Program-made: the position numbers and the translations under genes
The notes under the pieces: model-generated
What the model was told of the DNA's origin: nothing
Seen by the model: only the letters and a program-made list of their open reading frames with translations
Database searches by the model: none
Source of the DNA: Scenedesmus sp. PABB004
Lineage: Eukaryota
Assembly (NCBI GenBank): GCA_014905635.1
Contig: JABVCE010000011.1
Location: 744,001 to 808,000, forward strand
Reading direction: 5' to 3'
DNA length: 64,000 nt
Shown: in pieces, positions 35,647 through 42,046 of the stretch
Numbering within the stretch: the stretch's first letter is position 1
How the letters are laid out: the number at the start of each line of letters is the position of its first letter

Positions 35647-36130
35647 CAGCGCGGCGGGGCGCGATGGGATCGCTCTCGTGGCGCCGGGCGCGCCCTTGGC
35701 GGCGGAGCGCCGGCGGCGCGAGGTGTGAGCGCTCCTGCGGCGACTGGTGGTGCCCCTGGTTCTGGGCGGGACTGTCAACCCTCCCAAGCTGGTGAGCCCG
35801 CTGTCGTCGCACCAGCGGGCCGGCAGTCGAACGAGCGGCGGCACGCGACCGGCCAGCTCCCGCGCGGCGGCGCATGACAGGCCGCTCGCTGCCAGCTGCC
35901 CGCCACTGCGATCCACGCGCGAGCTGGCACGGGACCCGCGCCAGCGCTCCACGGCGGGCGCCGCAGTGGCGGCAGCAGCAGATGGCGGCAGCGGTGGCGG
36001 CCCCCGCCGATCAGCCGGCGGCCGCACACGCCGACCGGCCGGCCCAGGACGCCTTTCGGGCGGCAGAGAAGCGCTACCAGCTTCACCTGAGCCAGAAAGT
36101 CAAGGGCATGCGGTGCGGCGCTGCCGCCGC
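35647..36130 (+). repeat. Duplicate of the AlkB upstream region plus complete exon 1 (ATG 35982, donor 36113); alternative first exon or pseudo-exon
   Basis: Aligns with 40228-40705; exon 35982-36112 encodes the same 43 aa as 40558-40688 except one T/M change. Confidence 0.9.
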
Positions 36131-36982
36131 CACTGCTGCTTCTGCCGCTGCTGCCGCGGCGCCCGGCCCGCTGCTGGACGTGTCCTCGCCGTTACCCCCG
36201 AGGGCCCGCCCAGTTCATCACTGCTGTCCATGCCAGCGGCGACGAGGCAGGTGCAGCAGCGCGGCCCCGCCCCCGCAGCGCGCCGCGCTGCTGCTGCCGC
36301 GCACGGACCGGGGGAGCGCTGCCTGCACATCACGTGGGCGCCCCGGCGTTGCGCACGTGTGTGGCCTTGAAGTGGCGGGCGATCTTGGCAAAGATGCCCG
36401 CGACCCACCTGTCTCGAGGACATCTTCACCAAGATCGCCCGCCACTCCATCGTCATGCCCTGCACCGCCGGGGGCGTGGAGGCAGCTGGAGCTCAGCCCC
36501 CGCCCTGGTGCGCAGCTGTCAGCAGCTCCTCGTCTAGCAGCTGGTGCCCGCGGCCACAGCTGCGGCGGTGCAACCGCCACGGCGCTCGCGAGCGGCGGCG
36601 GCCGCGCGCGCCGTGCGCGCACGCTGATCGCGCTGAGCCCGCCGACGCACGCTGCCCAGTGTGTGCGCAGCACCCCGGGGCGCGCTCGCAGGGGCACGCC
36701 GAGCTGCGCCGCCGCGGCGCCCGGGGGCCCCGCGCTGCGCTGAGCTGCGCGGCGCTCGCCGCCGCGCGCGGCCGAGCGGCTGGCCTTGCCCGCGTGCCTG
36801 CGCACTGCAGGGGCGTCTGCATTCGCGGTCACGCCGCGATGCACGGCTGAACCGCTCGCACCAAGCGAATATGTTGTTGTTGCAAAATCGATCGACCAAA
36901 ACTGCCCACACTCCGCGCCCGCGCGCCCCCCACTCCGCCCGCGCCGATCCCCACGCCTCTCCCCATCCCAAATCTCGCCGCC

Positions 36983-40112: not shown

Positions 40113-40557
40113 GCGCGCCCCGCGCGGCGCCGCCGGGCGCGCGCGGCTGTACAGGTAGCGACGCGGCTGGGGGGCGCGAGGCGAGGCGAGGCGAGGAGGG
40201 GCGGCGAGTGGGGGGAATAAACGAAGGCAGCGCGGCGGGGCGCGATGGGATCGCTCTCGCGGCGCCGGGCGCGCCCGCGCGGCGGAGCGCCGGCGGCGCG
40301 AGGTGTGAGCGCTCCTGCGGCGGCTGGTGCTGCCCCTGGTTCTGGGCGGGACTGTCAACCCTCCCAAAGTGCTGTGCCCGCCGTCGCGAGCGAACGGGCC
40401 GGCAGTCGAACGAGCGGCGGCAGGCGACCGGCCGGCTCCCGCATGCGGCGGTGACAAGCTGCTCGCCAGCTGCCCGCCACTGCGATCCACACGCGCGAGC
40501 TGGCACGGGGCCCGCGCCAGCGCTCCACGGCGGGCGCCGCAGTGGCGGCAGCAGCAG

Positions 40558-42046
40558 ATGGCGGCAGCGGTGGCGGCCCCCGCCGATCAACCGGCGGCCG
40601 CACACGCCGACCGGCCGGCCCAGGACGCCTTCCGCGCGGCGGAGAAGCGCTACCAGCTGCACCTGAGCCAGAAAGTCAAGGGCACGCGGTGCGGCGCTGC
40701 CGCCGTTGCCGCTGCCGCCGTTGCCGCTGCCGCTGCCGGGGGCGCCCGCGCGGCCCTCCCTCCACTCCCTGCCGCCTCCACGCCGCCTGAACGCAAGGCG
40801 TGACGGGCGCCAGCGGCGGGGGCGCCTCGTGGCGGCGCCGACCGACCTGTCGGGAGTGCACGACGTGCGCGCGTCGCCCCTGCCGGAGGGGTACCCAGCC
40901 CGCGCGCAGGTGCTGGAGGCGGAGCTGCCGGCGTGGCTGGCCCCCTCCTGCGGGGACGGCCAGCAGCAGCAGCAGCAGCAGCAGCAAAAGGCGCGCGTGC
41001 GCGTGCTCACGTTTGCGTCGAACCCCGGGCTGGCGGTGTTTCCGGACGCGCTGCCGGCGGCGGCGCAGCTGCAGTTGATGGCGGCGGCGCTGCAGTGCTG
41101 GCCGGACCCGCCGACGCGGACCAACCACACCGCCGCGTACGGCGGGGCGCTGCGCGGCCTGTTCGCGGCGGCGCAGGCGGGGCTGGTGCTGGCAGAGCAG
41201 CGGCCGGCGGCTGCGGGGTGTCGAGCCGCGGCGCAGGAGCGGGAGCAGGGGCAGCCGCAGTGTGCCTGCGAGCAGCAGCCGGCAGAGCGGCAGGGAGAGC
41301 AGCGCCAGGGAGAGCCGCGCCAGTGTCGAGGCGAGGAGGCAGAGCAGGAGCGGGAGTGTACTAAGCAGCCAGGGCAGCAGCTGCAGCCGCAGCAGCCACA
41401 GCAGTCGCAGCAGGAGCTGCCACCGCTGCCGCCGCAGCAGCAGGGCGGTTCGCCGTGGGCCGGCAGCGGGAGTGGCCCGCCGGCGGCGGCGCTGCTGCGC
41501 AAGCTGCGCTGGGCCAGCCTGGGCCCGCCGTTTGACTGGACGGCCCGCGTCTACGAGCGCGGCGTGCCGCACACGCCGCTGCCGCCGGAGCTCGCGGAGC
41601 TGGGCCGCTGCTTCGCGGCGCTCGCGGCGCGCGCGGCAGCGGCCGCCGGCGGCGGCGCTGGCACGCCGCGGCGGCCGTTTGACCCGGACGTCGCGCTGGT
41701 CAACTTTTACCACGGCGGCGACACGCTCAATGGCCATTGCGACGACGTCGAGCCCGACGCGCGCCAGCCGATCATCACGCTCTCCCTTGGCGTGCCAGCC
41801 GTGTTCCTCGTCGGCGGGCCGACCAAGGACACGCCGCCCACGGCGCTCCTGCTGCGCAGCGGCGACGTCGCGGTGCTCGCCGGGCCGGCCCGGCGCTGCT
41901 ACCATGGCGTGCCGCGCGTGCTGCCCGACCTGGGGCTCCCCGGGGACCTCGTCGCTGCGGCGGCGGGCCGCGCCGAGCTGGCGGCGGTGGTGGCGCACAT
42001 GGCCGAGTGCCGGGTCAACGTCAGCATACGTGACGCGGCGGCCTGA
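40558..42046 (+). CDS. ALKBH1: AlkB-family Fe(II)/2-oxoglutarate dioxygenase, ALKBH1-like, 2 exons
   Basis: Exon 1 40558-40688 ([11 protein letters not shown]); phase-2 intron 40689-40797; [25 protein letters not shown] (HxD), LRSGD...[20 protein letters not shown] 42046. Confidence 0.88.

Follow-up and report, generated by a model that had tools for sequence, protein, structure and literature searches.

Two copies of the 5′ end of an ALKBH1-type gene flank a complete SQD1 gene in the green alga Scenedesmus sp. PABB004

Gene content and organization of the locus

The stretch of DNA analysed here (hereafter the window) comprises 64,000 nt of contig JABVCE010000011.1 of Scenedesmus sp. PABB004 (GenBank assembly GCA_014905635.1, positions 744,001 to 808,000, forward strand). 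It belongs to a very GC-rich green-algal genome, and all coordinates below are those of the window. The locus contains a CXIP4/SREK1IP1-like gene on the minus strand, a complete SQD1 gene (UDP-sulfoquinovose synthase) and a two-exon AlkB gene on the plus strand, and two direct copies of a 0.58-kb segment that holds the AlkB promoter region, the 131-nt exon 1 and the start of intron 1. The entire SQD1 gene lies between the two copies, on the same strand.

The CXIP4/SREK1IP1-like gene (34232–35544, exon borders placed by eye) has its start codon at 35544–35542, a CCHC knuckle near 34915, a tail rich in R, K, E and S, and a TGTAA on its own strand at 34211, just past its stop codon. In the ESM Atlas its first match is the SREK1IP1 family (0.90, 185 shared features). 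Although the CCHC motif and the Atlas match are present, the Pfam zf-CCHC_3 domain stays below its cutoff in this protein (16.3 bits vs 27, E 0.0093), and we therefore use only the label CXIP4/SREK1IP1-like. Translation, motif and Atlas match together bear out a sequence-only reading of this DNA that had placed a CXIP4 gene head-to-head with the upstream AlkB exon copy; the two are 437 nt apart.

SQD1 (36984–40113) has at least 10 exons and lies on the strand of AlkB. Eight blocks match Arabidopsis SQD1 (PDB 1QRR) over residues 8–372 of 394 (E 2.4e-45 to 4e-06), with gaps of 111–189 nt between blocks; the nucleotide-binding motif GGDGYCG is present and one 15-residue block is nearly identical to 1QRR. 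The N-terminal exons and the last exon, including the exact borders at the 5′ end of the gene, were placed by eye. The gene between the AlkB exon 1 copies, read earlier as SQD1 from the letters, is thus SQD1 and complete.

The AlkB gene encodes a 2OG/Fe(II) dioxygenase of the ALKBH1 type. Its working exon 1 (40558–40688) is joined through a 109-nt GT-AG intron (40689–40797) to exon 2 (40798–42046; 415 codons plus stop), whose translation carries the oxygenase domain at residues 228–411 (Pfam PF13532, 2OG-FeII_Oxy_2; 113.1 bits vs a cutoff of 31.2, E 2.5e-32). An HxD...H iron-binding motif defines the AlkB family. In a 15-sequence alignment H313 and D315 are invariant, and the distal histidine is present in the translation within YHGVPRV. 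There are 27 relatives at E ≤ 1e-3, several of them labelled alkB family protein 1 by JGI. The exon 1 peptide aligns with the N-termini of seven of 12 ALKBH1-type relatives (the other five models are without an N-terminus), the spliced product of the downstream exon 1 and exon 2 matches relatives across the junction, and read-through of the unspliced intron 1 meets a stop. The downstream copy by itself gives a complete AlkB gene with an intron of typical length. A canonical TGTAA is absent after both AlkB and SQD1, so that read-through past the SQD1 end is conceivable.

This neighbourhood was compared with distant relatives by searching all 250 ORF pieces of the window between 28 and 48 kb against the best 80 of 128 confirmed metagenome loci with AlkB relatives (up to 59% identity). 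Neither SQD1 nor CXIP4 adjoins AlkB in any of these 80 loci (at least 2 kb of upstream sequence in 66 of them), and no common neighbour appears even at E 1e-2. In full-text literature searches, no description came up of an SQD1 gene lying within another gene or between copies of one.

The 0.58-kb direct repeat

The upstream repeat copy (35591–36168, plus strand) consists of the AlkB 5′ flank and promoter region, exon 1 and about 50–60 nt of intron 1; the downstream copy (40161–40748, plus strand) starts 48 nt past the SQD1 stop codon. Only the first ~50–60 nt of AlkB intron 1 are duplicated upstream. Earlier reading of the letters had put the shared upstream sequence at about 330 bp; the sharing stands, but its extent is longer, since self-blastn aligns 35591–36165 with 40161–40748 at 87.4% identity over 597 columns, of which 31 are gap columns (bit score 718). 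Within the well-aligned core (35644–36168), identity is 93.6% at 35644–35800, 84% at 35801–35900, 98.8% at 35901–35981, 95.4% in exon 1 and 78.6% in the intron start. Just outside the repeat it falls to 43.5%, the background for DNA of 73–81% GC such as that around the repeat, and the repeat is therefore far beyond chance.

Some features of the repeat bear on whether the assembly has created it. A mis-joined haplotype or a collapsed-repeat error would gain some plausibility from a 1.49-kb direct repeat 10 kb upstream, which might mark an error-prone region and has a similar spacing. However, the AlkB copies, at 87% identity and with six indel events, are not near-identical; the 4 kb that separate them are unique and form coherent gene sequence; and both junctions fall in non-coding DNA adjoining intact genes. 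We consider an artefact very improbable.

The 1.49-kb pair itself (25072–26563 and 29935–31427, 99.87% identity, spacing 4,863 nt) and two further local duplications were detected in the window by self-blastn. An LTR origin of this pair was rejected, as it has no TG..CA ends and the ORFs scanned there have no Pfam match.

Comparison of the two exon 1 copies

The two copies of exon 1 (35982–36112 and 40558–40688) are 131 nt each and differ at exactly six positions, with no indel. Five differences are synonymous (upstream/downstream): 36014 G/A (CAG/CAA), 36056 T/C (TTT/TTC), 36059 G/C (CGG/CGC), 36065 A/G (GCA/GCG) and 36083 T/G (CTT/CTG). The sixth, 36109 T/C (ATG/ACG, M/T), is the sole amino-acid change; it stems from a C/T difference within a CpG, and relatives vary at this residue. 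Each copy has an ATG start and ends in CG|GTGCGG in phase 2, and the upstream copy comprises 43 codons plus 2 nt, followed by the donor GTGCGG at 36113–36118. A 12-residue conserved N-terminal motif encoded by exon 1 is identical in both. The locus thus holds a pair of paralogous first exons in the same phase, both preceded by upstream sequence of their own. The positions and letters of both exons, the shared phase-2 donor and the count of five synonymous to one nonsynonymous difference, all noted before, hold on direct inspection of the sequence.

From this count it had been argued that the upstream exon is under purifying selection, the differences being the reverse of what neutral decay predicts. 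That holds if neutrality of both copies is taken as the null (P = 0.0088). It does not hold under the proper null, which lets only the upstream copy be neutral and keeps the working downstream one constrained: the probability of at least five synonymous among six is then 0.066, and the rate-based probability of at most one nonsynonymous difference is 0.20, 0.057 or 0.014 for different choices of the neutral rate. The statement is therefore too strong as made; the purifying-selection reading rests on six sites, is borderline under the correct null and is weaker than was claimed. dN/dS between the copies is low (~0.011/0.133 on 93.5 and 37.5 effective sites). When the changes are assigned by codon preference, about four synonymous and one nonsynonymous fall on the upstream copy, with a binomial tail of ~0.03 (calculated by hand from 0.286). 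A neutral copy would retain its ATG, open frame and GT donor after 3–6 substitutions with a probability of 0.68–0.82, so the intact frame of the upstream copy is expected by chance.

The unpreferred codons GCA and CTT (and TTT and CGG) sit on the upstream copy, while the gene-wide counts are 68 GCG to 5 GCA, 42 CTG to 1 CTT, 38 CGC to 14 CGG and 15 TTC to 11 TTT; this distribution is expected if selection on the upstream copy is relaxed. On the other hand, synonymous sites in exon 1 are ~13% diverged between the copies, which makes recent gene conversion a poor explanation of the conserved parts. Together with this synonymous divergence, the 98.8% identity in the 81 nt before the ATG, against 84% and 78.6% in neighbouring stretches, hints at constraint on both copies.

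A low dN/dS could also have been inherited. The upstream copy might be what a deletion of exon 2 left of a full second AlkB paralogue, or a copy of a diverged allele, so that the differences gathered while both exons worked and imply no present function; the further local duplications in the window would fit such a history. Against this, homology ends abruptly, with no AlkB-like sequence beyond ~55 nt into the upstream intron start, self-blastn finds no second AlkB exon 2 in the window, and more events are needed than for a single partial duplication. We regard this origin as highly improbable.

Splicing of the upstream exon

Joined to 40798–42046, either exon 1 copy yields an open 458-codon frame, so the proposal that the upstream exon could splice in frame to AlkB exon 2 is sound as geometry. 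AlkB would then be a two-promoter gene, with its distal first exon on a promoter shared with the CXIP4/SREK1IP1-like gene and with transcripts spliced from 36112 to 40798 over a 4.7-kb intron in which SQD1 is nested. As the two isoforms would differ by one residue, any gain from the duplicated exon would be regulatory. Besides the in-frame junction, this possibility draws on the identical donors and intact ATGs, the synonymous bias and low dN/dS, the conserved 81 nt next to the start codon, the unchanged N-terminal motif and the missing TGTAA after SQD1. A possible second same-strand nest in the same window, an MlaF/TGD3-type ABC gene between two EngA GTPase halves, likewise suggests that same-strand nesting may be tolerated in this genome.

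The intron itself is an obstacle. It would measure 4,685 nt, 25–40 times the local norm (~110–190 nt), and would enclose about ten same-strand SQD1 introns with strong acceptors as well as the SQD1 3′ end. Nearer sites are plentiful: from the upstream donor to 37400 there are twelve pyrimidine-preceded YAG sites, of which nine precede the SQD1 ATG, the first acceptor-like site being 101 nt from the donor, and SQD1 has its own acceptor at 37240. The long intron and the SQD1 introns argue against efficient use of the upstream exon with exon 2. A survey in Drosophila found too few intron-bearing genes nested on the strand of their host, a shortage that its authors explain by mis-splicing (PMC3814207). 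Given also the borderline statistics under the correct null and the unpreferred codons accumulating on the upstream copy, we consider the two-promoter gene rather unlikely.

A freshwater metagenome run (X1, 0.06 share of words) gave 203 records against 35400–42300 at 85% likeness, mostly short and of low depth. Among the 8 of 326 pieces listed from these short, low-depth records, the joint 36112–40798 was not found. One 197-nt record on 35698–35864 mixes letters of the upstream and downstream copies and is therefore assignable to neither. An apparent joint 36140–36280 was disregarded, one of its sides being just 23 letters of low-complexity sequence.

Alternatively, the upstream copy may have been co-opted for SQD1 as a distal promoter or leader, its exon being spliced to an acceptor within 36169–37369. 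Variants of this reading are (i) a leader with an upstream ORF, (ii) a regulated non-productive isoform and (iii) interference with a proximal SQD1 promoter. The setting is suitable: the exon copy precedes the SQD1 ATG by 872 nt in the same orientation, it retains an intact promoter region and donor, the acceptor-like sites before the ATG and the SQD1 acceptor lie within reach, and a very stable hairpin (~36359–36458; −66.3 kcal/mol, z −7.65) would fall in the leader or intron. Yet a leader role leaves the amino-acid-level conservation unexplained, and SQD1 has a plausible upstream region of its own, the unique spacer at 36169–36983, which is single-copy in the window and has its AT-richest patch at ~36868–36905. 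A fusion protein of AlkB exon 1 with SQD1 was rejected, as the frame of the phase-2 exon does not continue into the SQD1 exon that begins at 37370 and fits only an SQD1 exon located after the NAD-binding motif (both by eye). The co-option variants, even jointly, appear distinctly unlikely.

Between the upstream copy and SQD1, the eight ORFs scanned have no Pfam match at E up to 1, and for the read-through ORF of the upstream copy (35982–36740) none of 8000 scored candidates was a protein relative at E ≤ 0.01. The sole Rfam match, mir-6132 (33.7 bits vs a gathering score of 112), falls in CAG-rich coding sequence and was taken as chance.

Origin and probable role of the upstream copy

Our results suggest that a young partial duplicate, left over from the duplication, is the most likely identity of the upstream copy; the hint of continued use is too weak to decide the matter. 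A single local rearrangement may have produced the two direct copies, either (i) because the segment was copied and pasted ~4.6 kb upstream or (ii) because a segment bearing SQD1 was inserted with a long target duplication. The earlier suggestion from the letters was that the upstream copy holds the ancestral promoter and SQD1 is the insert; the relatives compared above are too distant to favour either order. AlkB protein would be made from the downstream copy through its normal 109-nt intron, and the upstream copy, stranded between the CXIP4/SREK1IP1-like gene and SQD1, would be dispensable for it. We infer that the upstream copy probably still acts as a promoter, common to the head-to-head CXIP4/SREK1IP1-like gene, and sense transcripts may arise from it. 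The most likely partners of its donor would be nearby acceptor-like sites or SQD1 acceptors, and the products would then be leader transcripts or non-productive ones. Youth and chance can accommodate both the intact frame of the copy and the synonymous bias of the differences. A young partial duplicate in a non-coding role beside a working downstream copy is the best explanation as a whole, and we hold it with about even confidence.

If the upstream copy is such a relic, the locus records an ordinary young partial duplication and is mainly a warning for gene prediction, which could produce a false 4.7-kb intron or a false AlkB–SQD1 fusion. If the upstream exon is used, the locus would offer, in a compact algal genome, a clean and datable duplication of a first exon and promoter on either side of a gene nested on the same strand. 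It would then reveal how a host and its nested gene escape conflicts of splicing and polyadenylation, the proximal exon copy being one such escape. It would also link an enzyme of the nucleic-acid demethylase type, in its expression, to a promoter that serves a splicing-related CCHC protein as well and, together with the ABC gene between the EngA halves, would indicate that this genome tolerates, or even exploits, the nesting of plastid-lipid genes on the host strand.

Comparison with known systems

The arrangement resembles the first exons of PGM1 as described in PMC7101342 (citing Putt et al. 1993), where the working first coding exon is preceded by a paralogue that has an upstream region of its own, and both are in the same phase towards a common exon 2. 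By the same account, the PGM1 exons are old (over 420 Myr), 51% identical and give distinct expressed isoforms. By contrast, the AlkB copies are one residue apart and have a whole unrelated gene between them.

Use of the upstream exon would place the whole of SQD1 within a same-strand AlkB intron, as in the same-strand nested pairs of Drosophila. In the Drosophila survey, the opposite strand carries 71% of nested genes, and a single exon is the rule for 72.5% of those on the same strand (PMC3814207). SQD1, unlike these, has about ten introns, and AlkB has no need of nesting, thanks to its second, intron-proximal first exon.

The preferred reading has its likeness in young partial duplicates of gene 5′ ends and in pseudo-exons that arise by local segmental duplication. 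These comprise a promoter, exon 1 and part of intron 1 but not the remainder of the gene, and lie a few kilobases from the parent in direct orientation; divergence here is 5–20%. The AlkB copy differs from freely decaying duplicates in that its nonsynonymous and 5′UTR-proximal sites are less diverged than such duplicates most often show, and from young partial duplicates in that it sits exactly between two intact genes and disrupts neither.

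Duplication of the AlkB 5′ end around SQD1

SQD1 is flanked by two direct copies of the 5′ end of AlkB, a plus-strand gene of two exons. Self-blastn aligned 35591–36165 with 40161–40748 at 87.4% identity over 597 columns (31 gap columns), and a repeat search and MAFFT concurred. The duplicate comprises ∼390 nt 5′ of the ATG, all of exon 1 and ∼55 nt of intron 1; immediately past its right end, identity is at the background level (43.5%). The sequence-only reading had recognized the duplicated exon with shared upstream DNA and had underestimated the latter (∼330 bp). Similarity along the pair is not uniform: 93.6% at 35644–35800, 84% (6 gap columns) at 35801–35900, 98.8% at 35901–35981, 95.4% in exon 1 and 78.6% at the intron start. 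The exon copies (35982–36112 upstream; 40558–40688 downstream, 131 nt) differ exactly at the six sites listed in that reading, five of them third-position synonymous and one M/T at codon 43, and both retain the ATG and, as it had also stated, the donor CG|GTGCGG. Assembly error, under which the upstream copy would not exist in the genome, is to us the least probable of the readings weighed. The only AATAAA in the 64 kb (40216–40221, +) lies within the downstream repeat copy, 103 nt past the SQD1 stop, and is formed by a 4-nt insertion that the upstream copy lacks.

Eukaryotic in origin, the window has a G+C content of 73–81%. Exons 1 and 2 (40798–42046) of AlkB, joined across a 109-nt GT–AG intron, give an open frame of 458 codons, while the unspliced frame meets a stop. 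Exon 2 has a Pfam match to 2OG-FeII_Oxy_2 (PF13532, E 2.5e-32). A protein search returned 27 relatives at E ≤ 1e-3, several with the JGI name "alkB family protein 1"; the top one (assigned by UniRef to Tetradesmus obliquus) is 48% identical. Of 12 relatives, 7 have N-termini that align with the 43-residue exon-1 peptide through a 12-residue motif, the other five being gene models without an N-terminus, and the sequence after the splice (…PTDLSGV.DVR) keeps aligning. Because the frame is open only when spliced and relatives align on both sides, exon 1 and its intron are real.

SQD1 (36984–40113, +) was delimited from eight translated blocks (37670–39820) that match residues 8–372 of 394 in Arabidopsis SQD1 (PDB 1QRR) and include the GGDGYCG motif; the N-terminal and last exons were read by eye. 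Gaps between blocks are 111–189 nt. The SQD1 ATG lies 815 nt past the end of the upstream copy, and the downstream copy starts 48 nt after the gene's stop codon. On the other side of the upstream copy, a minus-strand gene starts at 35544, its ATG 437 nt from that of the upstream exon. The head-to-head arrangement claimed for CXIP4 thus holds, and the identity can be given only as CXIP4/SREK1IP1-like: the protein combines a CCHC knuckle with an R/K/E/S-rich tail, its closest ESM Atlas clusters are SREK1IP1 (0.90), and Pfam zf-CCHC_3 scored under cutoff.

Three further observations concern SQD1 and its 5′ side. The interval 37990–38100 (+) starts with GC and ends with AG, and the flanking blocks (ending at 37989 and starting at 38101) match consecutive 1QRR residues 72 and 73, implying a GC–AG intron. 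A 490-nt contig from freshwater metagenome run X1 (region 38975–39570) is letter-identical to the window at 39455–39570 and omits 38976–39144 and 39228–39454, approximately two SQD1 introns; X1 may therefore contain RNA-derived or intron-less SQD1 of this alga or a very close relative. Between the upstream exon and SQD1, a ∼100-nt hairpin (36345–36460, +; −66.3 kcal/mol, z −7.65; ∼18 unbroken pairs) was equalled in stability by 0 of 200 shuffles, is present only once in the window and matches no Rfam family.

Selection on the upstream copy

The synonymous bias had been taken as the reverse of neutral decay. When substitutions follow the spectrum of the repeat's 38 non-coding differences, a random exon change is synonymous with probability 0.286, and the claim stands if both copies are neutral (P(≥5/6) = 0.0088). 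Since the downstream copy serves as the functional exon and is necessarily constrained, we used the null in which only the upstream copy is neutral; the expected synonymous share is then 0.445 and the claim fails (P = 0.066). Under this null, 3.0, 4.6 or 6.2 nonsynonymous changes are expected, depending on the neutral rate, against one observed (P(≤1) = 0.20, 0.057 or 0.014), and the ATG, open frame and GT donor all survive 3–6 random substitutions with probability 0.82–0.68.

Among 790 codons (AlkB exon 2 and SQD1 blocks), CAG (59:1), GCG (68:5) and CTG (42:1) are strongly preferred. Because unpreferred codons are mostly in the upstream copy (GCA and CTT, also TTT and CGG; CAA in the downstream copy), most changes probably occurred there, at a cost to codon quality that is in line with relaxed selection. 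Assigned in this way, the upstream branch has ∼4 synonymous and one nonsynonymous change (binomial tail ∼0.03, by hand). The 81 nt immediately 5′ of the ATG are nearly identical, against a synonymous divergence of 13%; this is a further hint of constraint and is not easily explained by gene conversion. Inheritance of the bias from a lost paralogue or diverged allele would require no function of the exon, and we consider it improbable. The selection signal seems genuine yet small, suggestive rather than decisive.

Could the upstream exon serve AlkB or SQD1?

The proposed joint to AlkB exon 2 is indeed in frame. It needs an intron of 4,685 nt (36113–40797), compared with 109 nt for the actual AlkB intron and 111–189 nt for the SQD1 gaps, and every SQD1 intron falls inside it on the same strand. 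The stretch from the upstream donor to 37400 contains 12 YAG sites preceded by pyrimidines, of which the nearest is 101 nt away. In a Drosophila study, 71% of nested genes lie on the opposite strand and same-strand ones are mostly single-exon, which its authors attribute to selection against mis-splicing (PMC3814207). This objection is softened by a same-strand ABC gene between the two EngA GTPase domains and by the lack of TGTAA after SQD1 and AlkB. The window has 13 copies of TGTAA (both strands), which looks like a 3′-end signal because it lies just beyond the stop codons of EngA and the CXIP4-like gene; the plus strand has none at 31289–44946. A canonical TGTAA is missing for both SQD1 and AlkB. 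An alternative AlkB first exon with SQD1 nested in its intron is an unlikely reading. Nine of the 12 YAG sites precede the SQD1 ATG, and co-option of the upstream copy as an SQD1 leader is less likely still.

The EngA region (8700–13300, +) has GTPase domain 1 at ∼8742–9533, domain 2 at ∼11737–11886 and a KH-like domain at ∼12663–12845 (Pfam). Because a complete ABC_tran domain (∼10517–10981, +; top PDB matches MlaF) of an MlaF/TGD3-type gene (10.5–11.0 kb) is interposed, EngA is either split or host to a nested gene. A TGTAA lies at 11498, between the ABC gene and domain 2.

Other repeats and genes were noted in the window. A 1,493-nt direct pair (25072–26563/29935–31427) is 99.87% identical, with a spacing (4,863 nt) similar to that of the AlkB pair (4,576 nt) and TGTAA near the 3′ end of both copies; it has no TG..CA ends, and the ORFs scanned there gave no Pfam match. 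Two further local pairs, at 26788–27166/29260–29647 and 20829–21003/29690–29865, comprise a direct one at 87% and an inverted one at 93%. Minus-strand genes include a U1-70K type (22969–24947; U1snRNP70_N, RRM_1) and a PP5-type phosphatase (4721–7330; Metallophos, PPP5, TPR), with an extended (CA)n/(CGCA)n microsatellite block (5086–5382) in or beside the region of the latter.

Origin of the arrangement and known parallels

Two one-step histories are compatible with this layout: (a) with CXIP4 and AlkB initially head-to-head, a 4.0-kb SQD1 unit (36169–40160) entered intron 1 and duplicated a 0.58-kb target sequence; or (b) CXIP4–SQD1–AlkB was the first order, and a duplicate of the 0.58-kb AlkB 5′ end was inserted 46 nt 5′ of the start codon of the CXIP4-like gene. 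The insert under (a) would be a whole gene, since it reaches from 815 nt 5′ of the SQD1 ATG to 47 nt beyond the stop codon; history (b) requires no gene to move. Among the best 80 of 128 confirmed loci of AlkB relatives, none shared a neighbour with the window.

We lean against a functional role for the upstream exon. That it is a young partial duplicate, probably still promoter-active and not needed for AlkB, we hold at about even odds. A full-text literature search, mostly at abstract level, returned nothing on an SQD1 gene that lies inside another gene or between copies of one. The closest parallels known are young partial duplicates of gene 5′ ends and a duplicated first exon with two promoters, as in human PGM1 (PMC7101342).
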